The notes beneath the pieces were generated by a model. It saw only the letters and a list, made by a program, of their open reading frames with translations, ran no database searches and had not been told where the DNA came from. This document shows, piece after piece, positions 45,414 through 64,000 of a stretch of DNA of 64,000 bases. Location of the stretch: NCBI GenBank assembly GCA_964502815.1, contig CAZCXV010000001.1, forward strand, positions 7,907-71,906, written 5' to 3'. The first letter of the stretch is position 1, and every line of letters begins with the position of its first letter. The position numbers were made by a program, and so were the translations under genes. This DNA comes from an uncultured Gammaproteobacteria bacterium (lineage in GTDB: Bacteria > Patescibacteriota > Microgenomatia > UBA8517).

Positions 45414-45578
45414 AAATTTAAAAAAGTGGATAAATTATTGGAGCCAATGGACTGGAACCAATAAAAAGGATAAGCACCGCAAAAACTAGAAATATGATCA
45501 ACATTGGCATAAGCCACCAAAGTTTTCTTTTCCAAAGAAAAGAAAACAGTTCCTTTAATATCGAAAATTTTTCTAGCA

Positions 45579-45974
45579 TTAATTATCCTTCGTTTTTCTC
45601 TTTGTAATAATGCCACTAGTTTCAATAAAAAGCAATAGTGTACCAAGCAAGAAAGCTTGGAAAGCATATACCGAAGTTCTTTCGGACCAAATATCCACTC
45701 CAACAATTCTTAATACCCCTGCAAACAACCAAAACAAAAGTGCTATCAAATAAAACGCAACACTACGAGCATCCAATAAGAAAATTGCAAAAATAAGTGC
45801 TAAAACTACAACAATATTCACACTAATTGGCAAATATGGATGGAAATAACCAGCAGAACGCAATAAAACTAACAACATAACAAGGCCGTTAAAAATACCA
45901 ATTCTCAAATAATGAGTTTTAATCCAATGAAAAACATCGTCATTAAACATCTCAATAAATTTTGTTAATTTCAT
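45579..45974 (-). CDS. Small polytopic membrane protein (131 aa), coupled (ATGA) to the upstream 1032-aa membrane protein
   Basis: 3-4 hydrophobic helices. The start overlaps the stop of 45971..49069. Confidence 0.5.
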   Translation of the reverse strand: MKLTKFIEMFNDDVFHWIKTHYLRIGIFNGLVMLLVLLRSAGYFHPYLPISVNIVVVLALIFAIFLLDARSVAFYLIALLFWLFAGVLRIVGVDIWSERTSVYAFQAFLLGTLLLFIETSGIITKRKTKDN

Positions 45975-49069: not shown

Positions 49070-51080
49070 ATATTTGTAATTCGTTTATTACCCAAGGCGC
49101 AAATTGATGATAACCGATTTGATGTATTGTAACAAAACGTACCGGTTTTGGTAGTACATATATTTCCGTTATCCCCTTTTCGTTGGGTAGGCGTCTTTCG
49201 ACTTTATATAACTCTTGCCAAATAATTTTGTCTTGTGACCCTTCAACTAAAAATCCAACTTCATTTTGATCCTTACTGGCACTCGAGTCTATTCTAATAA
49301 GTGAAATGTTTTTACTTTTTCCAAAATCAATTGTAATACTTTGAGGATAATAATAGGCAAGAAGTGAGCTCCAATAACTATTTTTGTTTGAATCAATCAA
49401 TTTTTTGATATCATTCTGGTTATTGGTTGAGGTAATTTGATTTTCCTGTAAAAATATTTGCCTCTGATTTAATTTTTTAGATAAATATTCATTTCGAACT
49501 CTTAGCGAGATATCGCTCAAACTCCTATTATTACTATTAAAAGAAAAAGCATAGACTGATTCCACAGGAATCTTTTCTTTTTCTATTATATTTTCCATCT
49601 GTGTTTGATCATAGAAAAAGCCAAAACCAAAATCATCAGCTTCTTTGTATCCTTGATCTTGTATTCCCCAAAGAAATTCATCTCTAAAAAAGTAAACCGG
49701 TATCTTTTGCTTCTGTTCATAATTTACAAGCAGTAATTGCCCAAACCCAGATTGAAAAGGTAAGATTTTTTTATTTATTCCATAATGTGCTCTATCCGAT
49801 TCTACGTACACCAAAGATTTTTGAGGGAGAATAGGTAAATACGAGTTAACTGCATAAACAATATCTTTTCTTATTTTGGCCTGCGAAAGTAAATGCTCAA
49901 ATGTTTTCTGAAGATAATAAACATTAGTGACAACAAGCAGTGCGAAAAATAACACAACAATGGTCTTATAGAAAAACTTCTTTGGGTTGTCGAATTTACT
50001 AAATAAATAACCAATATAGATACTCGCGGCAATGCTTGCTGTATAAAAATATCTTGAGTCGGGATAGATCAAATATTTGTTAGTTATCACCAAAGGAAGA
50101 CTACTAAATAGGTTGAAAGTGAAATACAAGAAAAGTATTTTTGTATTTTTTCTAGTTGTCAAAAAGACTAGCAAAGTTACAATAGCTCCAAGCAATAAAG
50201 CTATTAACTCGAAAGAATAATCATTACTGACAACCCAGATTTTATTTGGGTCTGGCAAAAACTCAATTAGCCTCGGGGTAAGCCAATTGGCTGCATTTAT
50301 CAAAACATCCTGAGGAACAAATATTTGACTTATAAATTTTAGCGGTAGTGTCGCTAGATTATATACAATATTATTTAGATAGTCAGTAGGTTGACTAGTT
50401 AAATTGGTAGTCGCACTCGCTTGGCCAAAGAAAATATAAGAAAATTTCAGAAACAAATACATAAATGCTACTGAGAGTAATTTTAGAAACCTATTTAAGT
50501 TTTTTTCGATGAAGATTGAGCTCACTATTAATATACCATAGAAGGTTAAAGCATTTTCCCTATAAAGAAGTGAAACAAAGATAAAAACGAGTGAAAGCCA
50601 GAATCTTCGTTTGTAGGTCAAAAGAGATAATATTCCAAATAATGTTGACCCCAAAATACCTTCAAATGTGCCAATCCAAGTGATTGCTTGGTGATTGCTT
50701 GCGCTCAATGCAAAAAAAAGTGCTCCTAAAAAGGCTGATTTTTTCTTTTTTAGTAAATCGAGTAGAAAAAAATATAGAGAAACTACCACAGTAGAATGAA
50801 GCAAAATACTCACAACAAAATATGGTTTTTCGTCAAGTCCAAAAAGATTGAATATAGTCGATTTTGTAAGAAGCGATAATGGCGTAAAGTGTGCCAAAAG
50901 CCCTCCTTTTAATATTATGGCAAGCGCATCAGATAGGGAATTTGAAAACACATAAATATAGTGTCCAAAACTATGCCATTCGTCTTGTTCGAAGTAACTA
51001 TTGATTATTTGGCTATAGAAGACTATTACTATCACCAGCAATATTGAAACAGGTAGAATATGTTTTACAAGATTTTTCAT
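49050..51080 (-). CDS. Polytopic membrane protein with C-terminal F5/8 type C (discoidin) carbohydrate-binding domain
   Basis: About 11 N-terminal TM helices. The C-terminus NSYWSSLLAYYYPQSITIDFGKSKNISLIRIDSSASKDQNEVGFLVEGSQDKIIWQELY fits the discoidin pattern (W.s...pqw..iDlg....i..i.i......y.ve.S.dg..W). Confidence 0.7.
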   Translation of the reverse strand: MKNLVKHILPVSILLVIVIVFYSQIINSYFEQDEWHSFGHYIYVFSNSLSDALAIILKGGLLAHFTPLSLLTKSTIFNLFGLDEKPYFVVSILLHSTVVVSLYFFLLDLLKKKKSAFLGALFFALSASNHQAITWIGTFEGILGSTLFGILSLLTYKRRFWLSLVFIFVSLLYRENALTFYGILIVSSIFIEKNLNRFLKLLSVAFMYLFLKFSYIFFGQASATTNLTSQPTDYLNNIVYNLATLPLKFISQIFVPQDVLINAANWLTPRLIEFLPDPNKIWVVSNDYSFELIALLLGAIVTLLVFLTTRKNTKILFLYFTFNLFSSLPLVITNKYLIYPDSRYFYTASIAASIYIGYLFSKFDNPKKFFYKTIVVLFFALLVVTNVYYLQKTFEHLLSQAKIRKDIVYAVNSYLPILPQKSLVYVESDRAHYGINKKILPFQSGFGQLLLVNYEQKQKIPVYFFRDEFLWGIQDQGYKEADDFGFGFFYDQTQMENIIEKEKIPVESVYAFSFNSNNRSLSDISLRVRNEYLSKKLNQRQIFLQENQITSTNNQNDIKKLIDSNKNSYWSSLLAYYYPQSITIDFGKSKNISLIRIDSSASKDQNEVGFLVEGSQDKIIWQELYKVERRLPNEKGITEIYVLPKPVRFVTIHQIGYHQFAPWVINELQIYEVKDQ

Positions 51081-51784
51081 TTCTCAGCCACAACCACACA
51101 ATATGAAGAGTGATTTGTATCTATTTTGGTAACAATATTTGCTAAGAAAATTGGTAAAGGATAGAAACCTACTCCAATAATTTTATTAATTTTAAATTTA
51201 TACGCCTTTAGAAGTTGAACCAATGCTTTAGTAGTCATAACATTCAGATGTGGATACATATTTTCCCCCATATCACTTGTGTAATATTCAGCATTAGGTC
51301 TATGACCAATTGGGTAGATGCGTGAGATATATGGCCCCGTATATGGTTGATTTCCAAGTACTAGAGCGAAAATATTATGGTACGCTGCCAAATTTTCTGT
51401 AGAAATTATAAATTTTCCACCTTTTCTTAATGTTCTTGCCGCTTCGGCAACAAATTTATCAACATTAACAAGATGCTCAATAACTTCAGTTGCTGTAAGG
51501 CAGTCAATACTTGCAGAATCAATTGGCCAAGACTTATTAAGATCTGCTGTTTTTATCTGAATTTTATTATTTCTTGCTGCTTTGACATATTTTGCACTAA
51601 TCTCAATCCCAAATATTTTCGTCGTACCTATTTGTTGTGCACGCTTCAAGGTTTTGGCTCCATCATAGCAACCCAAATCTAAATACTTTACATTAATTCC
51701 TCTAGGTAAGGCCTTAATAACCTCCTCTTCAATTTTTACTTCGTAACTCGCGCCTAGCTTTTTTATATATTTTCCTAATTTCAT
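51077..51784 (-). CDS. Class I SAM-dependent methyltransferase
   Basis: VKYLDLGCYDGAKTL (motif I) and CLTATEVIEHLVN. Confidence 0.8.
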   Translation of the reverse strand: MKLGKYIKKLGASYEVKIEEEVIKALPRGINVKYLDLGCYDGAKTLKRAQQIGTTKIFGIEISAKYVKAARNNKIQIKTADLNKSWPIDSASIDCLTATEVIEHLVNVDKFVAEAARTLRKGGKFIISTENLAAYHNIFALVLGNQPYTGPYISRIYPIGHRPNAEYYTSDMGENMYPHLNVMTTKALVQLLKAYKFKINKIIGVGFYPLPIFLANIVTKIDTNHSSYCVVVAEK

Positions 51785-51788
51785 ATAG

Positions 51789-52751
51789 TCATATCAAAAA
51801 TCTTCTTTTGATAAACACCACCAAATAACTTACAACAGAAACAAAACACATAAGTGGATGGAGCAACCAAGCTTTCTGGCGCTCTTTAATACAATTAAAC
51901 ACGCCTTCAATAAACGGACCAATTATCGAAGCGCAATAGACAGCACTCATGACAAAACGTAATTTTGGTATACCCTCAACCCAAGTTCTTTTCTTTTCAT
52001 CTTTTCTATTTAGATACTTATTGCCAATCTTAAGGCGTTTGTTGATAAAATCCCTCAACGAGTTAACATGGTAATGGTAAATACCAACACCAGGGATCCT
52101 AGCAAATTTTCTAAAACCTGCCTCTTTAGCAAAGAAGGAGAAATTTGACTCTTCAAATTTTTGCGAGTACTGGCCAACTTTTTTAATAACTCTCTTGTTC
52201 CATAAAAACCCATTTGCACCTAAGGGATAACTGGAATTCTTTGGAATTGTAAGCTCGATATAGCCTGATTTTTGTTTTTGCTCCAATTTTCCAGCAATAC
52301 TTCGAGAAAATGGGTCTGCAATATGCGCAACCATGCAATAGGTGTTGTAAATACTCTCACCTTTTTTTGGAAAATAATAAGATTCGACACCAAATAGATT
52401 CGGGTCGTCAAGTAATGGTTTTACCATTTTAGCTAACCAATACTTACTTATTATCTCATTATCAGAATCAAGTAGGGCAACTATTTCCCCTTTTGAATGC
52501 TTTATACCAATTGATTTTGCTGATTCCGGATCTACTTTAGGGTTATCAATCACTTTTGCTCCATGTTTATGGGCAATTGTACGTGTAGCATCTTTTGATC
52601 CTCCATCAATAACAAAAATTTCATACTTATTTTTAGGGTAGATTTGTTTTTTAACACTTTTCAAGCATTTTTCCAGATATATTTGAGAATTGTATGTAGG
52701 TACAATAAAGGTGACAAATGGATGTTGCATCTCGTGCTTATTGTACCTCAA
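51789..52751 (-). CDS. Glycosyltransferase family 2
   Basis: FVTFIVPTYNSQIYLEKCLKSVKKQIYPKNKYEIFVIDGGSKDAT...LLDSDN. A C-terminal TM is present. Confidence 0.8.
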   Translation of the reverse strand: MRYNKHEMQHPFVTFIVPTYNSQIYLEKCLKSVKKQIYPKNKYEIFVIDGGSKDATRTIAHKHGAKVIDNPKVDPESAKSIGIKHSKGEIVALLDSDNEIISKYWLAKMVKPLLDDPNLFGVESYYFPKKGESIYNTYCMVAHIADPFSRSIAGKLEQKQKSGYIELTIPKNSSYPLGANGFLWNKRVIKKVGQYSQKFEESNFSFFAKEAGFRKFARIPGVGIYHYHVNSLRDFINKRLKIGNKYLNRKDEKKRTWVEGIPKLRFVMSAVYCASIIGPFIEGVFNCIKERQKAWLLHPLMCFVSVVSYLVVFIKRRFLI

Positions 52752-55449
52752 CTTTTGGAATTTGGATAATCATCTCCTCAAGAACTACTTGACCTGGAAT
52801 CTTAAAGTTAGATAATCTAATTTTATCTATCTTAGTTCCACCTGCAGGGAGGATGAAACTATAGTAATGTAGCTTTCCATCATAGATGATTTTAATTTCA
52901 GATTTAGTTTGTGTTAGCCATTTTTCACCCCCGTCTCCCCACCAATATGGTTGGAGTGTACCGGTGTAGTTAATAGCAGATAATCGGTCAATAAAACCTT
53001 TTTTATTATTAACAAAGATAAAAGGGTTATTGATAAAGTCTTGAATCTCTGTAACATTGGCGGAGGAAAATTCTTCTGGGATAACAATGAATTCTGAAAT
53101 CATTGGTGAATCCTGCCCTAAGGTATCAAAAATAGTCATTTTTACATATCTTGCTAAAGAAGGTTTAAGTTTGACTTCTTGAGGAATTTGAATATCAATA
53201 GAGAAGTCCTCCACTTTTGCAACCTCTTGCCAAGATTTTCCATCAAGCGAGGTTTCAATTACATAGCTTATTGGAAAGTTATTTCTAGATCCACCTTGCC
53301 AATTTACTTTTCCTAGTTTTGTCAACTGGGGTAACTCAACTTGCAAAAACGTCTGTTCGGTAGTCCAAGCAGTTCTATCAGATTGCCAAACTGTTGACTC
53401 ATCCATATCAGCAAGATGTTTTTCGATTCTTGCTTGCCATTGACTACTGGTCTTTATTTTAATTTTTTGATAATACATTTCGATATACTTTTTGTATCCA
53501 ATGGCCATCTCTTCTAATTTAGGTTCTTTCCAAGGTGTACCACTGAAATCTCTGGTCGCTGATTTCAAATTGACAAAAGGATAAACAGTTGCAGTACTGT
53601 TGAGAGGAATTGCCTTCAAAGCAAGTATAACTTCTAATGGATGAATACTTGATATCGGCTCTTTAAAACTAATCTCAAGATCAGATGCTGACCACGTAGG
53701 TAATCCTTTATTTTCAGATACTTGTGTTTCAGAGACAGTAGGAAGATTAAAAGCTGGCTCAAAGGATTTTAAACTGCCTTCAAAGTAAGCCCTTATACTA
53801 TTTGATGTGTCAACAAGTCCAGCTTGTGAATACCAAAAGGAATGTATTTTACCTGGATCAACTTTTTCTTTTGCAAGTGTTTTGACTAAACTGTCAAAAT
53901 CTGTAATTAAAAAAAAGTCATAGCGATCTACCCCATATCTCCAAGCAAATGATCCACTGTCTGGAACCATGGCGGCAGAAATAGCATCTCTAAAATTCCT
54001 TTGTCTGCCTGGAGCAACATCAAAATACAACACATCACCCTTGTTAAGGGTCGGGAGTAGCACCTTAAGGTCCTGATAGAAACTCTTAACTGGAAAGCTT
54101 CTAGTTTCAAGAATTTTTCTTTGATACAAAAAGGCATTAACAAGATTACCCACAGTCACAAGAACAATCAAAGCAGCTGCAATGTTGCTTATTTTGTTTT
54201 TTGATTCTCTCAAATTTACAAACAGAAAGCCCAATATTCCCGCGTAAATAAAGAATGAATGCGCAATGTATCTGTTTACTGTATCGTAGGCAACAGTTGG
54301 ATAATAGGAGGAATATGCCAAAATGTTTGCAACCATCCAGAAAAACAGAAATAGAAAGATTCGATTACCTTTTTTCAATGAAACGAAGATACAAAGAGCA
54401 AAGATCAGCACCAAACCCCCCACAAAAGCAGTTAACTGATATATTTGGCCAACTCCGAGAAGAAGGTTGGTAAAAATCGACCTAGACCAAAGAGACCATA
54501 ATATCAACAGAAAGACAAAAATAGGAATCAAGATTTTTCTTTTTTTATGATTTCTCAATAATAATATTATGATTACAAACGAAATCATAAATAGAATTAT
54601 TCTTTCAACTGTTAAATTTTTTGAAATATTTAGTACAGGGTTAAATAGCCAATCTGGAAAGATTAAATTAGCCAAAGAAGACAAATATCCATATGCTAGA
54701 TACAGCTTTCCACTCAATATTCCCAAAACGTAGTCTTTTGCAACTGAAGACCTACTGTCACCAGCAAAAAGAATTTTGTTGAAAATAACAAAAAAAGGTA
54801 AAATTCTAAATATTGGAAATACAATAGTCTTAATTGATTTAAAAGAAAAAAAGAAAATTAATTCAAAAGCTAGGACAACCAAAAATAAATAGTGAGTTCT
54901 ACTGATAGCAATATGCATAGAGAAAAAAAATGTGGCTAAAGCGATAAGATACCAATAAATTTTCTGTTGTTTAAAATATTTCCAATAAAACAAGAAAAAC
55001 AATCCTACTAAGATAATCGTTATGCTTGTAGTTGCACTATTTGCCATTCGCCAAAATCCGTCCGAGGTTGTGTAACCTGCTCCGAAAACGAGTCCGGCAA
55101 CTTTCCCCTCCCTCTCACCCAAAACGGCGGTAAATACCTTATATACTGAAATAGTTGCTAAACAATAAAGAATAATCAACAAAGCAAAATAGAACACTGG
55201 ATTGTGGCCAAAAAAACTGTAAATTGGGATAAATGGAATGGCTGCATACTTATATACTCCCTCACCTAAGGGCCCTTTCCCAAAAAAACCTACTGATTCT
55301 TGTAAGTTGGCTAATTTAATAAACAAAGCATTGTCGTCTTCCCAAGGTTGCATCCAAAGCATCTGTCCGTAAGAGACAAATACTAGCAAAATCAAAACTA
55401 ACCAAAAGTTTGTCAACAGTTTTTTCACAATACCACAATGATACACCAT
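52738..55449 (-). CDS. Large polytopic membrane protein (903 aa) with C-terminal F5/8 type C (discoidin) domain
   Basis: About 13 N-terminal TM helices. The C-terminus VWQSDRTAWTTEQTFLQVELPQLTKLGKVNWQGGSRNNFPISYVIETSLDGKSWQEVAKV fits the discoidin pattern. Confidence 0.7.
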   Translation of the reverse strand: MVYHCGIVKKLLTNFWLVLILLVFVSYGQMLWMQPWEDDNALFIKLANLQESVGFFGKGPLGEGVYKYAAIPFIPIYSFFGHNPVFYFALLIILYCLATISVYKVFTAVLGEREGKVAGLVFGAGYTTSDGFWRMANSATTSITIILVGLFFLFYWKYFKQQKIYWYLIALATFFFSMHIAISRTHYLFLVVLAFELIFFFSFKSIKTIVFPIFRILPFFVIFNKILFAGDSRSSVAKDYVLGILSGKLYLAYGYLSSLANLIFPDWLFNPVLNISKNLTVERIILFMISFVIIILLLRNHKKRKILIPIFVFLLILWSLWSRSIFTNLLLGVGQIYQLTAFVGGLVLIFALCIFVSLKKGNRIFLFLFFWMVANILAYSSYYPTVAYDTVNRYIAHSFFIYAGILGFLFVNLRESKNKISNIAAALIVLVTVGNLVNAFLYQRKILETRSFPVKSFYQDLKVLLPTLNKGDVLYFDVAPGRQRNFRDAISAAMVPDSGSFAWRYGVDRYDFFLITDFDSLVKTLAKEKVDPGKIHSFWYSQAGLVDTSNSIRAYFEGSLKSFEPAFNLPTVSETQVSENKGLPTWSASDLEISFKEPISSIHPLEVILALKAIPLNSTATVYPFVNLKSATRDFSGTPWKEPKLEEMAIGYKKYIEMYYQKIKIKTSSQWQARIEKHLADMDESTVWQSDRTAWTTEQTFLQVELPQLTKLGKVNWQGGSRNNFPISYVIETSLDGKSWQEVAKVEDFSIDIQIPQEVKLKPSLARYVKMTIFDTLGQDSPMISEFIVIPEEFSSANVTEIQDFINNPFIFVNNKKGFIDRLSAINYTGTLQPYWWGDGGEKWLTQTKSEIKIIYDGKLHYYSFILPAGGTKIDKIRLSNFKIPGQVVLEEMIIQIPKVEVQ

Positions 55450-55503
55450 CTTTGATTTGACTCAATAGTAGATAAATTTGCTGATCAATAGAAAATATCG
55501 AAG

Positions 55504-56646
55504 CTACTTTTTCTTAAAGCGAAGTAAAAACCAAAGGCTAGATATCCCCAAAAGTGTTTTTATTATTACAAAAGGATTTGCTCCTTTTGATTTTCCACCT
55601 GCCCTGTCGTGCCAGTAAATTGGTACTTCTGTAAACTTATATTTTTTTTGCAGAGCTTTAACAAAAAATTCTGGTAAAAACATCGCACTTCTATCTTCAG
55701 AGTTTATTTCAATCGATTCAATAACTCTTCTTCTCCACAAAAATACTGATGAAATTTGTCTAAATGGAATGCCCAGTAAATTCTTAATTAACAAATGGAA
55801 TGCCCAAGAGTTAAAATCACGAATTATACCTTCATCCCTGTAGACCCTATACCCAATTGCTCCATCATATCCGCGAACAGCTTCTGTAAATTTGTTAAAT
55901 TCCTTAAAGTCAAACTGACCATCAGCAGGTGCCAAAAAAACAAGGTGCTTTTTTGCAGAATAGAGTGCAGTTTTCATAGCTCCGGTAAAACCTTTGTTTT
56001 TTTGATGATGGATAGCTCGTATTTTTTTGTTTCTCTTGGCAAGTCTATCTATTATCCTTCCTGTATTATCAGTAGAGCCGTCGTTAACTAATACTATTTC
56101 AAAATCTTTAGATTCTTTACCTACATTTTCCAAAATATCAGAAACAACTTTTTCAATTGTTTTTTCTTCATTAAATGCTGGAATGACAATAGAAACCGAT
56201 TCTTTCTCGATATCTTTTAAGAATTTTTTACTTGAGCCAATTATTTTAGCCGGCACACCAACAACTAAAGAGTATGGTGGAACAACCATTCTCTCAGAAA
56301 CAACAGCTCCTGCCCCGATAACAGAATGGTGACCAATTTTTGCACCTCGCAAAATAACAGCGTTGGTACCAATAAAACAAAATTCACCAATTTCAGTTGG
56401 TAGTGCATCCACATCCGGGTGTCGCCTTTCAGAAATACACCTTCTTACTGTTGAATGTGTAAGTATTTGTGCACCACTTGAAATGTCTGTGCCACGTCCC
56501 ACTTTTAGCGGCGCATAAAGTGCATCAATTAAACAAAACGATCCTACCCAAACCCTCGGGCCTATTTCAGGATTTCCTAAAATCCAAGCATGCTTATTGT
56601 ATGGATTGTCTGGTAGCCCGTGATCGAAGCTGTCTACACTCATCAT
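55504..56646 (-). CDS. Bifunctional fusion: N-terminal hexapeptide-repeat (LbH) acyl/acetyltransferase + C-terminal GT2 polyprenyl-phosphate sugar synthase (DPM1/ArnC-like) with C-terminal membrane anchor
   Basis: The N-terminus carries hexapeptide repeats ...EIGEFCFIGTNAVILRGAKIGHHSVIGAGAVVSERMVVPPYSLVVGVPAKIIG. The C-terminus reads VSIVIPAFNEEKTIEKVVSDILENV...FEIVLVNDGSTDNTGRII...FLAPADGQ. The terminal hydrophobic segment is LLGISSLWFLLRF. Confidence 0.75.
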   Translation of the reverse strand: MMSVDSFDHGLPDNPYNKHAWILGNPEIGPRVWVGSFCLIDALYAPLKVGRGTDISSGAQILTHSTVRRCISERRHPDVDALPTEIGEFCFIGTNAVILRGAKIGHHSVIGAGAVVSERMVVPPYSLVVGVPAKIIGSSKKFLKDIEKESVSIVIPAFNEEKTIEKVVSDILENVGKESKDFEIVLVNDGSTDNTGRIIDRLAKRNKKIRAIHHQKNKGFTGAMKTALYSAKKHLVFLAPADGQFDFKEFNKFTEAVRGYDGAIGYRVYRDEGIIRDFNSWAFHLLIKNLLGIPFRQISSVFLWRRRVIESIEINSEDRSAMFLPEFFVKALQKKYKFTEVPIYWHDRAGGKSKGANPFVIIKTLLGISSLWFLLRFKKK

Positions 56647-57770
56647 TTTGTAAGCTTAATAATGCTGTCAATAACTAGGTCTTGCTCTGCCAATGTCATT
56701 GTAGGATACAAAGGAAGTGCAATGGTTTGGAGAGTTGCCTTTTCTGTTTCTGGAAGGCTAATTTTTCCAAACATATTTTGATATGGTTTTTCCAAGTGAC
56801 TTGCCATTACTCCACGTCGTGTCGATATCCCACTATCAGCAAGTTTTTGCATCAATTCATCTCTTGAGATAGTTGAATTTTCCTTCAATCTAATAACATA
56901 GGTTTGCCAATTGTGTTTGTAGCTTTCTGGAACAAAAGGTGGAACGATTAAATTGCTTCCCCAAAAAGCCTTAGTGTATCTTGCTACCAACTTCTCTCTT
57001 TTCACTAAAATTTCCGGAAGCTTTTTCATTTGTTCTATGCCAATTGCGGCCTGAATATCAGTCATTCTAAAATTATAACCAATTGTTGTGTATTCTTCAT
57101 GAATTACCTTTTTAGCATCATGGCGGGCCACATCTGAAATATTCATACCATGATGCCTCAAAGCCCTAGCTTTGTCTGCAAGTTCTTTGTCGTTTGTAGT
57201 GATCATTCCCCCTTCACCTGTAGTAATTACTTTTCTAGGGTGAAAGCTAAAACAAGCAATGGGTGCCTTTGCGCCAACTTTTTCTCCATTATATTCACTA
57301 CCTATTGCAGGGGCAGCGTCCTCAACCACGATAAGTTTGTGCTCTTTGGCAATCTCATTAATTTGATCCATATCACAAGGCATTCCAATCTGGTCAACCG
57401 GCATAATTACTTTTGTTTTTTTAGTAATTTTCCTTTCTATTTCTTTTGGATCGAGGTTGTAGGTTAATGGGTCAATATCAACAAATATGGGTGTTGCTCC
57501 AGCATGGACAATCACGTTTACAGTTGCTATAAACGTAAATGAAGGAACAATGACTTCATCTCCAGGACCTACATCAAAAAGTTTAAGAGCCATAAAAAGA
57601 GCAGTGGTTGCCGAGGTTGTTGCAATTGCGTATTTTGTACCGATGTAGCTTGCAACCACTTCTTCAAACTCAGCTACTTTCGGTCCCTGGGTTACCCAAC
57701 CACTAGCCAATACCTCATTAACTGCTTTTTTCTCTTCATCATCAAATAGTGGTTTTTGAATGGGAATCAT
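56643..57770 (-). CDS. DegT/DnrJ/EryC1/StrS-family PLP-dependent sugar aminotransferase
   Basis: KAVNEVLASGWVTQGPKVAEFEEVVASYIGTKYAIATTSATTALFMAL. The PLP-lysine region is ...FSFHPRKVITTGEGG. Confidence 0.9.
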   Translation of the reverse strand: MIPIQKPLFDDEEKKAVNEVLASGWVTQGPKVAEFEEVVASYIGTKYAIATTSATTALFMALKLFDVGPGDEVIVPSFTFIATVNVIVHAGATPIFVDIDPLTYNLDPKEIERKITKKTKVIMPVDQIGMPCDMDQINEIAKEHKLIVVEDAAPAIGSEYNGEKVGAKAPIACFSFHPRKVITTGEGGMITTNDKELADKARALRHHGMNISDVARHDAKKVIHEEYTTIGYNFRMTDIQAAIGIEQMKKLPEILVKREKLVARYTKAFWGSNLIVPPFVPESYKHNWQTYVIRLKENSTISRDELMQKLADSGISTRRGVMASHLEKPYQNMFGKISLPETEKATLQTIALPLYPTMTLAEQDLVIDSIIKLTK

Positions 57771-58723
57771 TTTCGGTTATACCAGGTAACTAGCTTCTTC
57801 ATTCCTTCTTCCAAGGTTACTTCGGGTTTAAATCCAAGATCGTTTTTAACTTTTGTCAAATCAGCTTGTCTTCTAGATACATAGCCAATTTGGCCATTTC
57901 CTGGACGATGCTCAATCTTCAGTTTACTACCAGTCGCTTTTAAAAGAGCAGAGGCTAAATCGTTCAAACTAACTTGCTTTCCAAATCCTAAGTTATAAAA
58001 ACCCTCTATAACTTTACTTTTTAAAGCTTTAACGACTATTTTTGCAACGTCCTCAACATAGACAAAATCAAAAGTTTGTTTACCATCCCCAGAAATTACT
58101 GGCGACTCGTTAGAATTTATTCTTTCAAGCCATTTAATAAGTACTTCGGTATAAATTCCTGAAGCATCCATTCTTGGACCATATACATTAAAGGGTCTGA
58201 AACAAACATAACTTAATCCGAATTGTCTATGAAAGGCCTTAATAAACTGCTCATTTGCAATTTTAGCTGCGCCATACATGGCATCATTCCTGTATGGGTC
58301 TGTTTCTTTCATTGGAAGCTTCAGAGGATCACCATACACAGAAGCCGAAGAGTTGAAAACCATTTTTTTAACTTTGTGTTTTGCACAGGATTCAAAAACA
58401 TTAAATGTTCCATCCACAAGTATTTCATTACAAAGGCGTGGATCGTCATCACAGTTTCTATTTTTAATGACTGCCATATGTACAACCCAGTCTGCTCTTT
58501 TAATGTATTTATTTGTTACTTTGGGGTCTCTAATGTCTGCTTTAACAAATTGTACCCTTTTATCTTTTAAAAGGTGTGTAACATTTTCTTTTGTCCCTCT
58601 TATAAGATTGTCAATAATAATTATTTTGGAAACCTTTGCAGTCTTATCTTTTAAGAGGTAGTCAACAATCCACGAACCGATAAAGCCTGCTCCTCCTGTG
58701 ATAACCACCTTTCTTGAGGTCAT
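57767..58723 (-). CDS. NAD-dependent sugar epimerase/dehydratase (extended SDR)
   Basis: VVITGGAGFIGSWIVDYLL Rossmann motif and YGAAK (YxxxK) catalytic motif. Confidence 0.85.
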   Translation of the reverse strand: MTSRKVVITGGAGFIGSWIVDYLLKDKTAKVSKIIIIDNLIRGTKENVTHLLKDKRVQFVKADIRDPKVTNKYIKRADWVVHMAVIKNRNCDDDPRLCNEILVDGTFNVFESCAKHKVKKMVFNSSASVYGDPLKLPMKETDPYRNDAMYGAAKIANEQFIKAFHRQFGLSYVCFRPFNVYGPRMDASGIYTEVLIKWLERINSNESPVISGDGKQTFDFVYVEDVAKIVVKALKSKVIEGFYNLGFGKQVSLNDLASALLKATGSKLKIEHRPGNGQIGYVSRRQADLTKVKNDLGFKPEVTLEEGMKKLVTWYNRK

Positions 58724-59826
58724 CTTTCAAAAAATTCTCCTATTTTGTCGCAGACATACTTAACTTCTTCAGGAGTTAAATATGGATGCATAGGCAGAGA
58801 AAGTATGTCCTTTGCATATTTTTCTGTGATTGGAAAATCACCTTTTTTATATCCCAAAAATGCGGTTGATTTATTTAGGTGGACCGGAATCGGATAATGG
58901 ATGCCCGTTCCTACTCCATTTTGTTTAAGAAATTCAATTAATTTATCTCTTTTAGGAGTGCGAATAACATATAAATGAAAATTGCTTTTATTAGGTTTTT
59001 CCCAAATCTTTGGTGTGACTACTGGAATACTGGAGAGTAGTTTATTGTAAAGCTTTGCAGATTCTATTCTTTTAGAATTTCTTACGTTTAATCTTTTTAA
59101 GTTGTGGAGCAGAAAAGCTGCATGAATTGTTGCTAATCTACTGTTGTAGCCATAAACATCATGGTGATACTTTTTAGTTTGGCCAACATCTCTCATGGCC
59201 TTAATCTTCTTATATAGTTTCAGGCTATTTGTTGTAATCGCCCCACCATCACCAGATGCACCAAGATTTTTGGCGGGATAGAAAGAAAAAGCTGCAATTG
59301 TCCCAAGAGAGCCACACCTTTTGCCATTAAACTCTGCACCGTGCGCCTGACAAGCATCTTCAATTACAAAAAGTTTATGCTTCTTTGCAATTTTATTAAT
59401 TTCTTTCATATCACAAGGCTGACCGTACAAGTGAACCGGAATAATTGCTTTCGTTTTTTTAGTAACTGCTTTTTCAATTCTTTCTGGGTCAATTAGATAA
59501 GTCTCTGAATCAACATCTACAAGGATCGGTTTTGCCCCTAAATCAATGATTGGCATAACAGTGGCAATAAAGGTATTAGCTGGAACAATTACTTCATCCC
59601 CTGATCCAATACCTAAACTTCGAAGCGAGAGAAGGAGAGCGTCTCTTCCAGACGCTAATCCAAGAGCGTATTTAGTTCCTGTATATTTTGCAAATGCTTG
59701 CTCAAATTCACCAACTTCTTGCCCTAAAATAAATCTCCCGTTTGTCAAAATATCCAGAACTGATTCATCGATCTCTTTCTTTACCTCTTTGTATTGTGAT
59801 TTTAAATCAATAAAGGAAACGTTCAT
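58720..59826 (-). CDS. DegT/DnrJ/EryC1/StrS-family PLP-dependent sugar aminotransferase (second copy)
   Basis: GQEVGEFEQAFAKYTGTKYALGLASGRDALLLSL...FSFYPAKNLGASGDGG. Confidence 0.9.
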   Translation of the reverse strand: MNVSFIDLKSQYKEVKKEIDESVLDILTNGRFILGQEVGEFEQAFAKYTGTKYALGLASGRDALLLSLRSLGIGSGDEVIVPANTFIATVMPIIDLGAKPILVDVDSETYLIDPERIEKAVTKKTKAIIPVHLYGQPCDMKEINKIAKKHKLFVIEDACQAHGAEFNGKRCGSLGTIAAFSFYPAKNLGASGDGGAITTNSLKLYKKIKAMRDVGQTKKYHHDVYGYNSRLATIHAAFLLHNLKRLNVRNSKRIESAKLYNKLLSSIPVVTPKIWEKPNKSNFHLYVIRTPKRDKLIEFLKQNGVGTGIHYPIPVHLNKSTAFLGYKKGDFPITEKYAKDILSLPMHPYLTPEEVKYVCDKIGEFFER

Positions 59827-59831
59827 TTTGT

Positions 59832-60275
59832 TTATTTTTTCTTAATAATTCTTGCCGGGTTACCAACAACCACTACTCCTTCCGGAACATCTTTGACCAC
59901 TACTGCTCCCGCTCCAATAATAACATTATTTCCAATGTTTACTGGAAGTATTGTGGCATTTGAGCCAATACTCACCCTATCACCAACAATTGTTTTTCTC
60001 ATAGTCCATTTTGTTTTATCTCCATCAGGCCAATCAAACAAATCGTTTATAAACATTACCCCATGGGCAACAAAACAGTCCTTTCCAATTACCACTCCTT
60101 CACACACAAAGGTATGACTACTGATTCTTGATCTATCACCAATACTTACACCTTTTTGAATTTCAACAAAAGGTCCTATGAATACCCCATCTCCCAAAGT
60201 GCACCCATACATATTTACCATCTCAGGGAGAGGTACTTTTACATCTTTTCCTTTAGTTACGTCTCTTTCAGCCAT
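59832..60275 (-). CDS. Hexapeptide-repeat N-acetyltransferase (WbpD/PglD-like amino-sugar N-acetyltransferase)
   Basis: 147 aa. LGDGVFIGPFVEIQKGVSIGDRSRISSHTFVCEGVVIGKDCFVAHGVMFIND...IGAGAVVVKDVPEGVVVVGNPAR. Confidence 0.8.
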   Translation of the reverse strand: MAERDVTKGKDVKVPLPEMVNMYGCTLGDGVFIGPFVEIQKGVSIGDRSRISSHTFVCEGVVIGKDCFVAHGVMFINDLFDWPDGDKTKWTMRKTIVGDRVSIGSNATILPVNIGNNVIIGAGAVVVKDVPEGVVVVGNPARIIKKK

Positions 60276-60277
60276 AT

Positions 60278-61294
60278 TTAAATTAAACTTACTTTTACAC
60301 TTTTTCTTGACGATTCATTTGCTTTTTCCAAAATATTTACAACACTCATCCCAAATTCCCCACTACTCATGGTGGTTTTTCTTTCAGAAATAGCCGTAAG
60401 GAATTCTTGACTAAGAGTTTTAAGTCCTTCAACTATGTCTATCCTAGGGGCCCAAACATCTCCTGATCTGTAACCAATCTTTGTCTGTAACACTTTACTT
60501 GTAGAATTTTTATGTTTATTCACAGTCACTCCTTTATCGTAAATTTTAACTTTTTCTGATGGCTCAACATCATTATAGACAATCATTTTCTTTGTGCCAA
60601 CAATCATCATTTGTCTTATCTTTAGTGGGGACAGCCAACTAACATGGATATGACAGGTAGTCTTTCCTGGATAATCCAAATGCAAGTGGCATACCTCTTC
60701 TTGCTTATCGTAATAAGATGCACCAACGGAGGTTAGAGATTTTGGAAACTTACCCAATAAATATTGAATAATTGAAATATCGTGGGTAGCAAGATCAAAA
60801 ACAACATTTGAGTCTGGTTGAAAAAGGCCGAGATTGGCTCTAGTGGAATCAATATGCAATACTTCTCCAATTTCGCCACTGTCGATAATTTCTTTTAGTT
60901 TTCTAACTTCTTGCGTAAATAAAAACGTGTGATCAACCATAAGTATTTTATTATTCTTTTGCGCAATCTCGACTAATTCTTTTGCTTCTTTAGTGTCAAG
61001 CGTCATTGGCTTTTCAATTAAAACATCTTTACCAGATTCGAGTGCTGCCTTAGCAAGTGGATGGTGAAATTTGGTGGGAGTTGCAATCACTACCGCATCT
61101 ACCTCACTATCATTTAGAATATCCTCGTAATTTTTAGTTAACATTATAGAAGGATAGGCTTTTCTTACCTTTTTAAGCTTTACAATATCTAAGTCACAAC
61201 AGTACAAAACCTCACAATCAAGATTGTTAGAAAAATTTCTAAGAAGATTAGGTCCCCAATAACCATACCCAACAATTGCGATCTTTTTTAACAT
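60278..61294 (-). CDS. Gfo/Idh/MocA-family NAD-dependent sugar oxidoreductase (WbpB-like UDP-sugar dehydrogenase)
   Basis: The Rossmann N-terminus MLKKIAIVGYGYWGPNLLRNF starts at ATG 61294..61292. The track ORF extends 19 codons further 5', which is probably not translated. Confidence 0.85.
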   Translation of the reverse strand: MLKKIAIVGYGYWGPNLLRNFSNNLDCEVLYCCDLDIVKLKKVRKAYPSIMLTKNYEDILNDSEVDAVVIATPTKFHHPLAKAALESGKDVLIEKPMTLDTKEAKELVEIAQKNNKILMVDHTFLFTQEVRKLKEIIDSGEIGEVLHIDSTRANLGLFQPDSNVVFDLATHDISIIQYLLGKFPKSLTSVGASYYDKQEEVCHLHLDYPGKTTCHIHVSWLSPLKIRQMMIVGTKKMIVYNDVEPSEKVKIYDKGVTVNKHKNSTSKVLQTKIGYRSGDVWAPRIDIVEGLKTLSQEFLTAISERKTTMSSGEFGMSVVNILEKANESSRKSVKVSLI

Positions 61295-61347
61295 ATAGAG
61301 ATTTAATATAGGATCCAAAATATATATACTACCAAAACCAAAGATAA

Positions 61348-63663
61348 TCAATATCCAACTTCATCAAAAGACAAATCATCAACCGCCAAATTTAAATCAT
61401 CATTTGAGAAACTGGAAACTGAAAGGATCGCATATTTTACATTCTCAGGTGCTTGAGATTTTACGTTCACTTGCTGCCAATTGTCTTTAACTTTCGTTCG
61501 TGGTGATAAAGCAATTACTTTCCCTGGCAAATGTTTATTGTTGTATTCTCCATCAAGAAGTCTGATTTGCTCACTGGCCATAGGTGTTAAGCCGTAGTAG
61601 AAGTTAATCCAAAGTTTACTTAATTGATGGCTGATTTTCCTAAACATAGACTTATTGACTTTAGTATAGTAATCAATTCGCAAATAAATTGTCTGTTCTT
61701 TTTTCATCTGCCTTTGACTTCCCTTAATCCAACCTGAAAATTCATACATTTTCCCAGAAGTGACTTCGATTTCTTTTGACATTAATCTTGGTGGGGTAAA
61801 ACCTAAGTTTTTCTGATTGAACTCTAGAGAATCCTTTTTCGTTTTGCCTTCGAGTTCATTGTATTTTATTTCCACAGTATCTTCTGGAGAATAACTATCT
61901 ATTTCCCAATAACTCAAATCTTGCTTATAACTAAAATCAAAGGATCTAACATTAGTTTTTTTACCCGACTCTTTTTGAGGAGGAAGCTTAAAAAAATAAA
62001 TCCTAGAATTGTCACACATGGGTGATTTTGCAATATTTGATTTTAAATCTGCTCTTGAAAAATACTCTGAAAGTGCAAGGGGAACATATGAATTTTCATA
62101 GGCCTCGGTTGGAGGTGGAAAAAAATGGAGAAAATACATATAGGTAAAGTAATCAAGTTTGCCACCATTCATAAAAACATAGTCCACTCCCTCGCGTCTT
62201 ACTTCTTCTAAAGAGAAAATATTAACATACTCAAGTCTTAAAAGTTTTGCTAACTCAATTGAAGGAAATGTTACTTCAGGTTGATAGGCTACAGTTGATC
62301 CTGGCGGAATATTATTTTCGATCCACTTCTTTCCTTGTTTCTCAATTTGCTCCTGAGAACAAGAAATACTTGCGCTTCCAGCCAAAATTAAAGGTTGAAA
62401 AATTGTGATGCCAATAATCAAGGTAACTAATAAGTTCAGTCGATATTTAGGTTGGTTTCGTAGATATTTAATCAACTCAAAAATAAAATAGGCAGCAAAG
62501 AATACCAAAAAACTAACTGTCGGAAGAACAAGCCGCTCATAATAAACAGGGACATAGGAAGTGATATAGACAAGGTTAATTAGGGGAATAATTGCCAATA
62601 GTAAAAATTTTCTTTTATCCTTGATAAACAGCAGTATTAGCCCAAGAATCGATACTAGAGTGGGAATTAAACCATATGCCTGTGTTAATAAAAAATTCAC
62701 AAAAAACGGCTGAAATTTAATAGGTAGGAGTGTAGTTATTGGCGGAAGATTAGTTCTTCCAAGAGTCAGTACATATTTAGGAAGTGCAAAGATAAATGTA
62801 GTTACTGAAGTTCCATACCAAGGAAGAGCATATTTGCCCAAATCAACCATAAAGTTAGTCAAACCGTTGGGATCTAAAAACAAAAACGGTAAACCAATGA
62901 ATATTCCCACAAAAATTGCCATTAAGCTAAGCACTATTTTGACTAACGCTTTATTATTTTTATTCAAACTTAAGACAATAGCTACCGGATACGCAAGAAA
63001 AGCAATTGGGAAAAACTTGGTAGTCGCCGAAATACCTATAAATATCCCAGCAAGTATGTACCACTTAACTCTCTTGTCTTCAATCAATCTAACTAAAAAA
63101 TAGAACGACATGAGAATGAAAAGAACCATCGGAATATCGGTTGTTACGTAATGAGAATCTTTAACATGGGTCGGAGTAATCGAAATTAGTAATGCAGCTA
63201 TTAGCCCAACTTGTTTACTGAAAAGTCTTTTTCCAATAAGGTAAGTCACTAAAACTGTAGCAGTCCCAAGTACAGCAGTTAAACTTCTACCGACAATAAA
63301 AAGTATTTCGTCAATATCACTGATTGCCAGTGTATGGATTTGTGAGAAAGAAAGTATTGGACTCTGAGAAAAGACTGGTTCAATAATCTTTAAAAGGTAG
63401 TATGCTAAAAAAACTGGTAGTGAGACCAAAGCATGCAGGTAGAAATTTAGTGTTCCATATTTATAAATGTGCGGATTGAAATCAAATTTTGATATGACAG
63501 AATCAACCAACTTCCAAGAATAAACTTGTAAAACTCCTTCATCAGGGTGGCCAATGTTTGGCCAAATGCCAACCAATCGAATTATTAAAGCAAAAAAAAG
63601 AATGAATGATAATAACTTATTCCTCTTTAACATCTTTACAATGTAAAATATCACTTTCTTCAT
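61348..63663 (-). CDS. Polytopic membrane glycosyltransferase, GT-C (ArnT/GT39-like) with large C-terminal extracytoplasmic domain (771 aa)
   Basis: About 13 TM helices in the first 480 aa. N-terminal loop reads VGIWPNIGHPDEGVLQVYSW. It lies immediately upstream of the Arn-like amino-sugar genes. Confidence 0.7.
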   Translation of the reverse strand: MKKVIFYIVKMLKRNKLLSFILFFALIIRLVGIWPNIGHPDEGVLQVYSWKLVDSVISKFDFNPHIYKYGTLNFYLHALVSLPVFLAYYLLKIIEPVFSQSPILSFSQIHTLAISDIDEILFIVGRSLTAVLGTATVLVTYLIGKRLFSKQVGLIAALLISITPTHVKDSHYVTTDIPMVLFILMSFYFLVRLIEDKRVKWYILAGIFIGISATTKFFPIAFLAYPVAIVLSLNKNNKALVKIVLSLMAIFVGIFIGLPFLFLDPNGLTNFMVDLGKYALPWYGTSVTTFIFALPKYVLTLGRTNLPPITTLLPIKFQPFFVNFLLTQAYGLIPTLVSILGLILLFIKDKRKFLLLAIIPLINLVYITSYVPVYYERLVLPTVSFLVFFAAYFIFELIKYLRNQPKYRLNLLVTLIIGITIFQPLILAGSASISCSQEQIEKQGKKWIENNIPPGSTVAYQPEVTFPSIELAKLLRLEYVNIFSLEEVRREGVDYVFMNGGKLDYFTYMYFLHFFPPPTEAYENSYVPLALSEYFSRADLKSNIAKSPMCDNSRIYFFKLPPQKESGKKTNVRSFDFSYKQDLSYWEIDSYSPEDTVEIKYNELEGKTKKDSLEFNQKNLGFTPPRLMSKEIEVTSGKMYEFSGWIKGSQRQMKKEQTIYLRIDYYTKVNKSMFRKISHQLSKLWINFYYGLTPMASEQIRLLDGEYNNKHLPGKVIALSPRTKVKDNWQQVNVKSQAPENVKYAILSVSSFSNDDLNLAVDDLSFDEVGY

Positions 63664-63764
63664 TTAATATAGATTTCTCATTAATGTTTGCATTAGCAAA
63701 CACTTAGTAGTATATATCAATCACAACTTAGTGTAGTAAACTAAAATATTGCCTATTAAGTTAA

Positions 63765-64000
63765 ATGCAAAAAGACTACATAGTATCACTTATAATTCTT
63801 ACTCGTAATGATGCTGACATTATCTTAAGTCGCTTACTAAAAATTAAAAGGGCTTTATTACAACTAGATTGTCATTTCGAAATTGTGATAATTGACAATA
63901 ACTCAGCTGATGAAACAATTGAGGAGATAACAAGTTTAAAAACAGTTATACGTCATACCAGAATACTTAGACTTTCAAAAACATATGATGACGAAGTGGC
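63765..64000 (+). CDS. 5' part of a GT2 glycosyltransferase (DPM1-like), truncated by window end
   Basis: Not in the ORF track. ATG at 63765 reads MQKDYIVSLIILTRNDADIILSRLLKIKRALLQLDCHFEIVIIDNNSADETIEEI..., a GT2 N-terminal signature. It is divergent from 61348..63663. Confidence 0.6.
   Translation, partial: MQKDYIVSLIILTRNDADIILSRLLKIKRALLQLDCHFEIVIIDNNSADETIEEITSLKTVIRHTRILRLSKTYDDEV

Follow-up and report, generated by a model that had tools for sequence, protein, structure and literature searches.

A putative three-component, Arn-like glycosylation system with a predicted amino-sugar pathway in a Woesebacteria-like bacterium of the Candidate Phyla Radiation

The 64,000-nucleotide stretch of contig CAZCXV010000001.1 analyzed here (hereafter, the window) harbors seven consecutive minus-strand open reading frames (ORFs), from 63663 to 55504, which encode a membrane glycosyltransferase, a sugar dehydrogenase, two acetyltransferase domains, two aminotransferases, a short-chain dehydrogenase/reductase (SDR) and a second glycosyltransferase fused to one of the acetyltransferase domains. 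Such a set raises the question of which sugar is made, on which carrier it is loaded and where it is finally placed. The answer that we favor, with a probability of about 60%, is that the locus serves a three-component, Arn-like extracytoplasmic glycosylation of a Woesebacteria-like Candidate Phyla Radiation (CPR) bacterium and encodes, in addition, a six-enzyme pathway for the donor sugar.

The first ORF (61348..63663) encodes a 771-amino acid (aa) C-fold glycosyltransferase (GT-C) of the PMT_2/ArnT/PMT kind. It is followed by a Gfo/Idh/MocA NAD-dependent sugar dehydrogenase (60278..61351), a small left-handed beta-helix (LbH) N-acetyltransferase of 147 aa (59832..60275), a pyridoxal phosphate-dependent DegT aminotransferase of 368 aa (DegT1, 58720..59826), an extended SDR of 318 aa (57767..58723), a second DegT aminotransferase of 375 aa (DegT2, 56643..57770) and a 380-aa protein with Hexapep and Glycos_transf_2 Pfam domains (55504..56646). 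In the latter, residues 1-143 (56218..56646) form an LbH acetyltransferase domain and residues 148-380 (55504..56205) a predicted polyprenyl-phosphate glycosyltransferase domain of family 2 (GT2). The ORF coordinates show 4-nt overlaps or spacings of 2-5 nt between the seven genes. ORF calls, Pfam and NCBIfam confirmed the genes, with the exact coordinates, order and domains that had been assigned to them in a preliminary description of this DNA. That description also placed the fusion gene at the end of the operon. This was not supported, as the same-strand run continues past 55504 with six further genes to 45579, all gaps being at most 54 nt (54 nt between the fusion gene and the gene of a 903-aa membrane protein), and the operon probably extends to that point.

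In the proposed scheme, the Gfo/Idh/MocA dehydrogenase would oxidize C3 of a nucleotide sugar, most likely UDP-N-acetylglucosamine (UDP-GlcNAc); DegT1 would aminate C3, and the 147-aa LbH protein would then acetylate the C3 amine. The SDR would produce a 4-keto intermediate, DegT2 would aminate C4, and the LbH half of the fusion protein would acetylate the new C4 amine, the product being a nucleotide-linked 2,3,4-tri-N-acyl sugar if UDP-GlcNAc is the starting compound. The GT2 half, judged by its sequence, its predicted fold and the natural domain fusions of its relatives, would load this sugar on polyprenyl phosphate at the cytoplasmic face of the membrane, to which the C-terminal hydrophobic helix would anchor the protein. 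The fusion of the last tailoring step to lipid loading would be the counterpart of N-formylation by ArnA for ArnC. A flippase would move the lipid-linked sugar across the membrane, and a GT-C, the 903-aa protein, the 771-aa PMT_2 enzyme or both, would transfer it to an external acceptor, presumably a surface glycan or glycoprotein and not lipid A.

The enzymes of the first half of this pathway resemble those acting on C3. The Gfo/Idh/MocA protein, which carries both the N- and the C-terminal Pfam domain of its family, is a candidate nucleotide-sugar 3-dehydrogenase: its best NCBIfam model is the archaeal UDP-GlcNAc 3-dehydrogenase (168 bits, cut-off 450), and it matched GnnA (7bvj) with 59 bits. 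No WlbA or WbpB name was found among its 48 solved matches (E up to 1e-10). The true start of this protein is probably not the TTG at 61351 and lies at the ATG at 61294, which encodes M20 directly ahead of the Rossmann motif IAIVGYGYWG. The nearest solved relatives of the small LbH protein were 4mzu (WxcM-like), 3mqg, 7s43 and QdtC. The 3mqg structure, deposited under the title 'Lipopolysaccharides biosynthesis acetyltransferase', is taken here to be WlbB, and all four are assumed to acetylate the C3 amine of nucleotide sugars, which makes the small LbH protein a candidate for the same step. DegT1 scored 359 bits against QdtB, 315 against 2oga and 300 against WbpE, vs. 201 for perosamine synthase and 181 for ArnB. 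As 2oga is presumably DesV, and QdtB, DesV and WbpE are all understood to aminate C3, DegT1, with the Schiff-base lysine motif SFYPAKNLG, is assigned by these scores to the C3 type. The Gfo enzyme, DegT1 and the small LbH protein credibly form a C3 module by these matches. Among characterized routes, they are closest to the 3-dehydrogenase, C3 DegT aminotransferase and LbH 3-N-acetyltransferase of the WbpB/WbpE/WbpD (WlbA/C/B) and the archaeal/GnnA/GnnB routes to UDP-GlcNAc3NAc(A), although none of the three reaches an equivalog cut-off. Unlike in those routes, the WbpA 6-dehydrogenase and the WbpI epimerase are not in the window, and the product would be processed further at C4.

The second half of the pathway is built around the SDR and DegT2. 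The SDR has an epimerase-type active site (S-A-S ... YGAAK), the triplet S-A-S lying ahead of VYG (NSSASVYG). The corresponding triplet of ArnA and of human UDP-xylose synthase (UXS) is T-S-E. Other SDRs carry T-D-E (dTDP-glucose 4,6-dehydratase), S-A-E (one UDP-xylose synthase) and T-S-A or T-C-A (WbpP/GalE) at these positions (PMC12820599, Table 4). The best solved matches were 6dnt, Pal, GalE, WbgU and WbpP, of which the top match, 6dnt, is a WbpP-type UDP-GlcNAc 4-epimerase. The Pfam model Epimerase scored 183 bits vs. 56 bits for Polysacc_synt_2, and the NCBIfam ArnA model 49 bits (cut-off 777). The SDR had previously been proposed to be of the 4,6-dehydratase type; this assignment was rejected, as the triplet is S-A-S as in 4-epimerases and not T-D-E, and the best solved matches are 4-epimerases. 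DegT2 showed the reverse preference to DegT1, with 274 bits against perosamine synthase and 266 against ArnB vs. 214 (QdtB), 192 (WbpE) and 174 (2oga). Its NCBIfam scores for PseC (370 bits) and ArnB (341 bits, cut-off 631) were both below cut-off. DegT2, with the lysine motif SFHPRKVITTGEGG and the Schiff-base stretch SFHPRKVIT, is on these scores a C4-type aminotransferase of the ArnB/perosamine synthase kind, belonging to the same C4 group as ArnB without being an ArnB equivalog. Both DegT proteins group with sugar aminotransferases and not with those of amino-acid metabolism, the placement that the preliminary description had named as evidence against an amino-sugar pathway. The Schiff-base lysine is the motif that tells aminotransferases from ColD/E1-type dehydrases, and a dehydrase reading was rejected for either protein, the lysine being kept in both.

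One C3-type aminotransferase, one C4-type aminotransferase and a Gfo enzyme resembling UDP-GlcNAc 3-dehydrogenase together point, therefore, to a 2,3,4-tri-N-acyl sugar, if the pathway starts from UDP-GlcNAc, rather than to the 2,3- or 2,4-di-amino sugar suggested earlier. The bacillosamine pathway (PglF/PglE/PglD), named earlier as one model for the di-amino sugar, fits poorly: the SDR is without dehydratase residues, DegT2 scored 140 bits against 1o61 (presumably PglE), and the NeuD/PglB model (cut-off 161) gave 75 bits with the small LbH protein and 47 bits with the fused LbH domain. The only natural 2,3,4-triacetamido sugar documented in the sources used here, 2,3,4-triacetamido-2,3,4-trideoxy-L-arabinose, belongs to the O-antigen of Psychrobacter cryohalolentis K5. 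The same organism is the source of the N-acetyltransferase Pcryo_0619 (8vr6/7/m), to which, among solved structures, the fused LbH domain is closest (71 bits, 35% identity, rmsd 1.2 Å); the connection is taken as a lead. In P. cryohalolentis K5, the sugar enters an O-antigen repeat unit, and the parts of the published account considered here describe no lipid-monophosphate route.

In the fused LbH domain, H64 is invariant in 79 family members. A gamma-carbonic anhydrase reading of this domain was rejected, as T94 and R100 are the HMMER-aligned counterparts of the two histidines of the gamma-carbonic anhydrase motif GHNCIIHG, which we take to be zinc ligands, and as the best match is an N-acetyltransferase with a conserved His. 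The GT2 half aligned over its full length only with the Pyrococcus dolichyl-phosphate mannose synthase (PfDPMS), ArnC and GtrB; the remaining GT2 structures aligned only to its first 95 residues. An AlphaFold model of the fusion protein was built from 79 homologs (pLDDT 91), and in a Foldseek search of the PDB, the 15 best matches of the GT2 half were ArnC, GtrB and DPMS structures, with ArnC at the top (E 3e-13, TM-score 0.58 on the target). The rmsd was 2.6-3.5 Å over ∼235 columns for most of the 15 and up to 11 Å at rank 15. This is in agreement with the earlier suggestion that the GT2 half is of the ArnC/GtrB/DPMS kind. A single hydrophobic helix (residues 358-377) was found at the C-terminus of the fusion protein; GtrB and ArnC have two transmembrane helices.

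The relatives of the GT2 half are informative regarding its partners. In a profile search of 1.8 billion representatives, the full LbH::GT2 architecture collapsed to one 50% cluster, and the nearest GT2 relatives either stood alone, at ∼240 aa, or had the GT2 domain joined to further components of such systems. GT2, GtrA and PMT_2 were found in one 923-aa chain (P0188), GT2 and PMT_2 in P0221, P0226 and ∼8 others, and GT2 with a polysaccharide deacetylase of the ArnD fold in P0165. In P0147, the GT2 domain is joined to the transmembrane domain of the 903-aa protein family (E 1e-12). Of the indirect evidence, these naturally occurring fusions argue most strongly for a GT2 domain that would supply GT-C enzymes with a lipid-phosphate sugar. 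The two halves are also found split, in the related locus L090, where a DegT2 ortholog is followed by a stand-alone LbH protein, 63% identical to the fused LbH domain, and then by GT2. Separately, one of the nearest GT2 relatives (P0146) appears to be a fusion of GT2 to a histidine kinase.

Two membrane proteins of the operon are candidates for the final transfer. The 771-aa protein matched PMT_2 (72 bits, E 6.6e-20) and PMT (53 bits). Residues 1-430 contain ∼10 transmembrane segments, D41-E42 form a motif in the first outer loop, and the C-terminal domain, soluble and ∼340 aa long, has no family match. A sequence search of this protein against the PDB gave no match, and no ArnT-specific model matched. 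The 903-aa protein (52738..55449) has ∼12 transmembrane segments, with an invariant D38-D39 right after the first of them, followed by an extracytoplasmic domain with a carbohydrate-binding module (CBM) of the CBM32/F5-8 type C kind. F5_F8_type_C was its sole Pfam match, the membrane part having none, and the family profile found the CBM32 module alone in the PDB. The AlphaFold model (pLDDT 85) gave the GT-C AftD as the top Foldseek match (E 1.7e-8, low TM-score), followed by CBM32 modules, and hhalign against the PMT_2 paralogs aligned the core helices with 78.7% probability (E 1.7e-5). Like the mycobacterial arabinofuranosyltransferases AftD/Emb, the 903-aa protein would have extracytoplasmic modules that bind carbohydrate placed after a membrane domain of the GT-C type and would use a polyprenyl-phosphate sugar as donor. 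Their sequences have no detectable similarity to that of the 903-aa protein, in which the module is of the CBM32/discoidin type. The low TM-score against AftD is explained by the different domain arrangement. In each of the eight loci that were long enough, a homolog of the 903-aa protein is encoded no more than 10 kb from the fusion gene, and at least six further contigs also have one. Divergent counterparts of the 771-aa protein (22-24% identity) lie directly upstream of the Gfo gene in four related loci (L002, L003, L082 and L089), and in L004, L084 and L088 no PMT_2 gene lies there. Accordingly, the earlier proposal of an ArnT-like transferase holds insofar as a PMT_2 GT-C heads the operon, but it is the 903-aa GT-C-like protein that accompanies the fusion more consistently.

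In the GT136 prototype of three-component systems, the C-terminal CBM binds the glycan substrate (PMC11127046). As that GT-C also carries a C-terminal CBM, the 903-aa protein is read as a putative GT-C acting on a glycan acceptor, and the 771-aa enzyme would either draw on the donor as well or O-glycosylate proteins. The latter option leads to the alternative that has lost least ground, in which the donor is the same and the 771-aa enzyme O-glycosylates Ser/Thr residues of secreted or surface proteins such as S-layer proteins and pilins, similar to actinobacterial Pmt with polyprenyl-phosphate mannose. The matches to both PMT_2 and PMT, the DE motif in loop 1 and the GT2::PMT_2 fusions among the nearest GT2 relatives are consistent with it, and CPR cells do have S-layers and pili. 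The PMT_2 partner, however, is very divergent and not found directly upstream of Gfo in three of the loci, and the better-conserved 903-aa partner bears a CBM32 module pointing to a glycan. A protein acceptor is considered unlikely, though worth serious attention; it would be compatible with the preferred explanation and does not exclude it.

Three-component systems are known as GtrA/GtrB/GtrC in Shigella and Salmonella, CsbB-GtcA-YfhO in Firmicutes and polyprenyl-phosphoribose synthase/MATE/GT136 (PMC11127046); like them, the operon encodes a predicted polyprenyl-phosphate sugar synthase together with a GT-C, and the 903-aa protein shares with the GT136 prototype a C-terminal CBM, here of the CBM32 type. 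The operon differs from these systems in that the donor would be a heavily tailored amino sugar with a six-enzyme pathway of its own, the synthase shares its chain with an acetyltransferase and bears a single C-terminal helix rather than two transmembrane helices, no flippase was recognized in the operon, and GT-C proteins of two types are linked to it.

The block Gfo-LbH-DegT-SDR-DegT-LbH::GT2 was found in nine independent Microgenomates-type contigs. Its order is kept in L002, L003, L004, L082, L088 and L089, with variants in L084 and L086, and protein identity is 52-69% across the block genes, except for the small LbH protein (41-70%) and the SDR (30-57%). The arrangement is not a product of chance, and the operon is probably a core surface trait, since it is conserved over many Microgenomates-type contigs. 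Two types of SDR occupy the equivalent position: the S-A-S type in the window, L002, L003, L004, L088 and L089, and an S-S-E, UXS/ArnA-like type in L082, L084, L086 and L091. The latter is 30-38% identical to the window SDR, while the flanking genes are 53-66% identical. As DegT2 is equally conserved with either type, both would deliver a 4-keto substrate, probably with loss of C6 in the case of the S-S-E enzyme and without it in the case of the S-A-S enzyme. The S-S-E variants in L082, L084 and L086 would fit a decarboxylating pentose route to a sugar such as that of P. cryohalolentis, whereas the window SDR is not decarboxylase-like.

The acyl groups appear to vary as well. In L086 (497-6705), the small LbH gene is replaced by genes for a phosphopantetheinyl transferase, an 81-aa carrier-like protein, an AMP-ligase, an iron-containing alcohol dehydrogenase (Fe-ADH), LuxE, LuxC and an LpxD/NeuD-like LbH protein, a set suggesting that the C3 amine receives an N-acyl group of greater length or unusual kind and that this group differs among lineages. 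A formyltransferase gene lies directly upstream of the GT2 gene in L088 (9051-9995) and L091 (7054-8001). The L088 protein, encoded between DegT2 and LbH::GT2, has its best matches in the stand-alone and ArnA formyltransferase models and falls below the Fmt cut-off. In both relatives, the ArnA-type formyltransferase gene is flanked by those of the C4 aminotransferase and GT2, which lends comparative support to the idea, already voiced, that acetyl takes the place of formyl in the window. L091, the locus of P0147, contains, in order, a UDP-sugar 6-dehydrogenase (Ugd), a UXS-like SDR, PMT_2, an S-S-E SDR, DegT, formyltransferase and GT2::GT-C and reads from its gene content as an Arn-type operon in all but name; its DegT protein is 56% identical to DegT2. 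Directly after the fusion gene in L082 (11158-12027; also recorded for L082/L083), a 289-aa EamA/DMT transporter is encoded. As this superfamily also includes ArnE and ArnF, the L082 protein is a flippase candidate; a tblastn search with it found nothing in the window. A 505-507-aa protein without a firm family match is encoded convergently right after the fusion gene in L082 (12016-13539), L088 (11134-12657) and L089 (11121-12638), with no counterpart in the window. L002 (CAYWKL010000001.1) is labeled as uncultured Gammaproteobacteria, and its cluster proteins are 41-63% identical to those of the window, like those of L003 and L004, which bear Woesebacteria/Microgenomates labels; the label is probably a binning or labeling error.

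The variants bear on a further alternative, namely, that the locus makes two products, with the C3 module supplying a 2,3-diacetamido sugar nucleotide to ordinary cytoplasmic glycosyltransferases encoded nearby and the C4 module alone feeding the polyprenyl-phosphate GT2, so that, as in Arn, a 4-acetamido sugar would be linked to lipid. The C4 module does stand alone, with a formyltransferase, in L091, and the C3 part is split by seven other genes in L086. The window is, moreover, a glycosylation island of ∼60 kb in which Pfam scans found six PMT_2 GT-C genes, several GT2 and GT4 genes, a Bac_transf initiating transferase, Wzx, a Wzy_C protein, methyltransferases and a carbamoyltransferase; the abundance of Leloir GT2/GT4 genes, together with Bac_transf, Wzx and Wzy_C, would suit a sugar nucleotide used in the cytoplasm. 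On the other hand, the six genes are tightly coupled in a fixed order in nine contigs, this order equals the step order of one linear pathway, and a single reading frame encodes DegT1 together with the SDR in L003 (6792-8900, 697 aa) and L089 (6842-8908, 688 aa), which physically joins both modules. Separate products are for these reasons quite unlikely.

Several observations weigh against the single linear pathway and its lipid-linked product. Net oxidation at C4 by an S-A-S SDR would be the weakest step of the model: the enzyme has neither the Glu of decarboxylases nor the Asp-Glu of dehydratases, and we know of no citable precedent for an epimerase-like SDR of this kind with a 4-keto sugar as its net product. 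L088 holds the formyltransferase and both LbH proteins, i.e., three acyltransferases for two new amines, and the fused LbH domain may not be the C4 N-acetyltransferase, at least in that locus. Every match to the characterized equivalog models of NCBIfam lies far below cut-off, and a UDP-GlcNAc 6-dehydrogenase was not found in Pfam scans of the window. The GT-C fold proposed for the 903-aa protein depends on one Foldseek match with a low TM-score and one hhalign match of 79%. No GtrA, EamA or MATE flippase gene was recognizable in the operon; a Wzx gene (31988-33262) lies ∼12 kb beyond the last gene of the operon. Finally, the metal motif of the GT2 half, P240-A-D242-G-Q244 (PADGQ), which aligned to DADLQ of PfDPMS/ArnC, has an invariant Pro in place of the first Asp of the DXD motif; P240, D242 and G243 are invariant in 79 sequences, and the Pro variant is common to about one-third of the nearest GT2 relatives.

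This atypical motif, together with the low scores against the ArnC, GtrB and DPMS models (61 bits against the NCBIfam ArnC model, cut-off 529) and the great breadth of the GT2 family, could also indicate an ordinary Leloir GT2 that extends a polyprenyl-diphosphate-linked repeat unit, the nearby GT-C genes being unrelated members of a crowded island; with six PMT_2 genes in the window, adjacency alone is weak evidence. Such a reading is improbable given that the whole domain aligned only with polyprenyl-phosphate transferases, which fill the first 15 fold matches, that GT2 domains of this subfamily repeatedly occur in one chain with GT-C, GtrA and deacetylase domains, and that a C-terminal membrane helix is present.

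The host itself restricts the choice of acceptor. The glycyl-tRNA synthetase (GlyRS) encoded at 2336-3643 showed 75% identity to that of Ca. Woesebacteria, its other named relatives being from Microgenomates or Patescibacteria, and the named relatives of the fusion protein are likewise from Woesebacteria and Microgenomates. By these relationships, the host is a Woesebacteria-like CPR bacterium. CPR bacteria form a monoderm clade, and lipid A is very unlikely to be the acceptor because the host is monoderm. A genuine Arn pathway modifying lipid A with an amino sugar is hardly credible, as its general resemblance in parts (C4 aminotransferase, ArnC-like GT2 and PMT_2 GT-C) is set against a host of a monoderm clade, the lack of an ArnA-type decarboxylase motif, ArnD and ArnE/F in the Pfam/NCBIfam scans of the window, Arn equivalog scores that are all far below cut-off and the extra C3 module.

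The likeness to the Arn system of Enterobacteria (PmrHFIJKLM, L-Ara4N) is one of logic. An SDR, a C4 DegT aminotransferase, N-acylation, GT2 loading on polyprenyl phosphate and a PMT_2-type GT-C would follow one another in both; by fold, the GT2 half matches ArnC best, the top matches of DegT2 include ArnB, and two relatives, L088 and L091, carry an ArnA-type formyltransferase. In the window, however, acetyl (LbH) would take the place of formyl, the acyltransferase is fused to GT2 and not to the SDR, the SDR is without decarboxylase residues, a C3 amination/acetylation module is added, and the host has no outer membrane, so that the acceptor differs. Pfam scans of the window showed no Formyl_trans domain, and among the 50 window ORFs scanned, none matched Polysacc_deac_1 (ArnD fold); ArnE/ArnF-like small DMT/EamA proteins were not found in the window either. 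The Arn logic drawn in the preliminary description is supported as a scheme, with an acceptor other than lipid A. The system is best classed as a variant of three-component/Arn-like glycosylation and not as a member of the Arn pathway, several of the defining features of which are missing here.

A more far-reaching version is offered tentatively and is itself rather doubtful. The CPR donor would be new, a polyprenyl-phosphate-linked 2,3,4-tri-N-acyl hexose; a GalE-like SDR would act as a net C4 oxidase; the acetyltransferase::GT2 fusion would couple tailoring to loading; and an undescribed GT-C family (903 aa, CBM32) would place the sugar on a surface glycan or the S-layer of ultra-small episymbiotic cells. 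CPR/Patescibacteria account for a large part of bacterial diversity and, by current understanding, live attached to the cells of hosts; to our knowledge, almost nothing is known of their surface chemistry. Should the favored model be right, Arn-type logic would extend outside lipid A and outside diderms, a fusion enzyme would tie sugar tailoring to lipid loading, a first handle would be gained on a GT-C family without annotation, and a very rare class of sugar (triacylamido) could serve as a surface marker of these organisms. In size and solubility, the pathway enzymes are suited to direct tests in vitro.

The remaining genes of the same-strand run follow that of the 903-aa protein. They encode a 320-aa GT2 glycosyltransferase (Glycos_transf_2) with two C-terminal transmembrane helices, the gene of which overlaps the stop of the 903-aa gene (51789..52751), a 235-aa S-adenosylmethionine-dependent methyltransferase (Methyltransf_11/23/25; 51077..51784), a 676-aa protein with multiple transmembrane segments and a C-terminal F5/8 type C module (49050..51080) and a 1032-aa protein with multiple transmembrane segments and no family match (45971..49069). 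In hhalign comparisons with the PMT_2 and 903-aa profiles, neither the 676-aa nor the 1032-aa protein showed membrane-domain similarity; the 676-aa protein has the CBM alone in common with the 903-aa family, and a 26%-identical relative of the 1032-aa protein is encoded upstream of the cluster in L004. The final gene (45579..45974) encodes a 131-aa protein with three hydrophobic segments, without a Pfam match at E up to 5, which is a flippase candidate. At the other end, a divergent intergenic region (63664-63766) separates the operon from a plus-strand GT2 gene. With its start at 63767, this gene extends beyond the window, which includes its 5′ part (63664..64000 together with the intergenic region); its translation begins with MQKDYIVSLIILTRNDADI...FEIVIIDNNSADET. 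A promoter/terminator scan of 44400-64000 was uninformative, with counts equal to those of shuffled sequence, and a tRNA scan gave zero tRNAs.

Elsewhere in the island, a second, separate three-component-like module is apparent at 39806-42508. It consists of a 244-aa GT2 with a canonical DADGQ motif (41774-42508, minus strand), a small DUF2304 membrane protein (41415-41777, minus strand) and a 542-aa PMT_2 GT-C (39806-41434, plus strand), the 3′ ends of the latter two genes overlapping. Between the two glycosylation modules, at 42527-45413, a NodU/CmcH-type carbamoyltransferase (583 aa) and a protein of the ornithine/aspartate carbamoyltransferase fold (306 aa) are encoded, which could transfer carbamoyl to a sugar. 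Four more PMT_2 paralogs are located at 37782-39068, 29045-30412, 25805-27193 and 16359-17900, giving six per 64 kb, and the Wzx flippase, the Wzy_C protein (18897-20312) and a Ser/Thr protein kinase (17891-18904) are wedged among them. Toward the start of the window, a 947-aa protein (6385-9228) has a C-terminal Tox-REase-9 nuclease toxin domain, suggesting a polymorphic toxin, and is adjoined by a DUF4012 protein (4234-6336).

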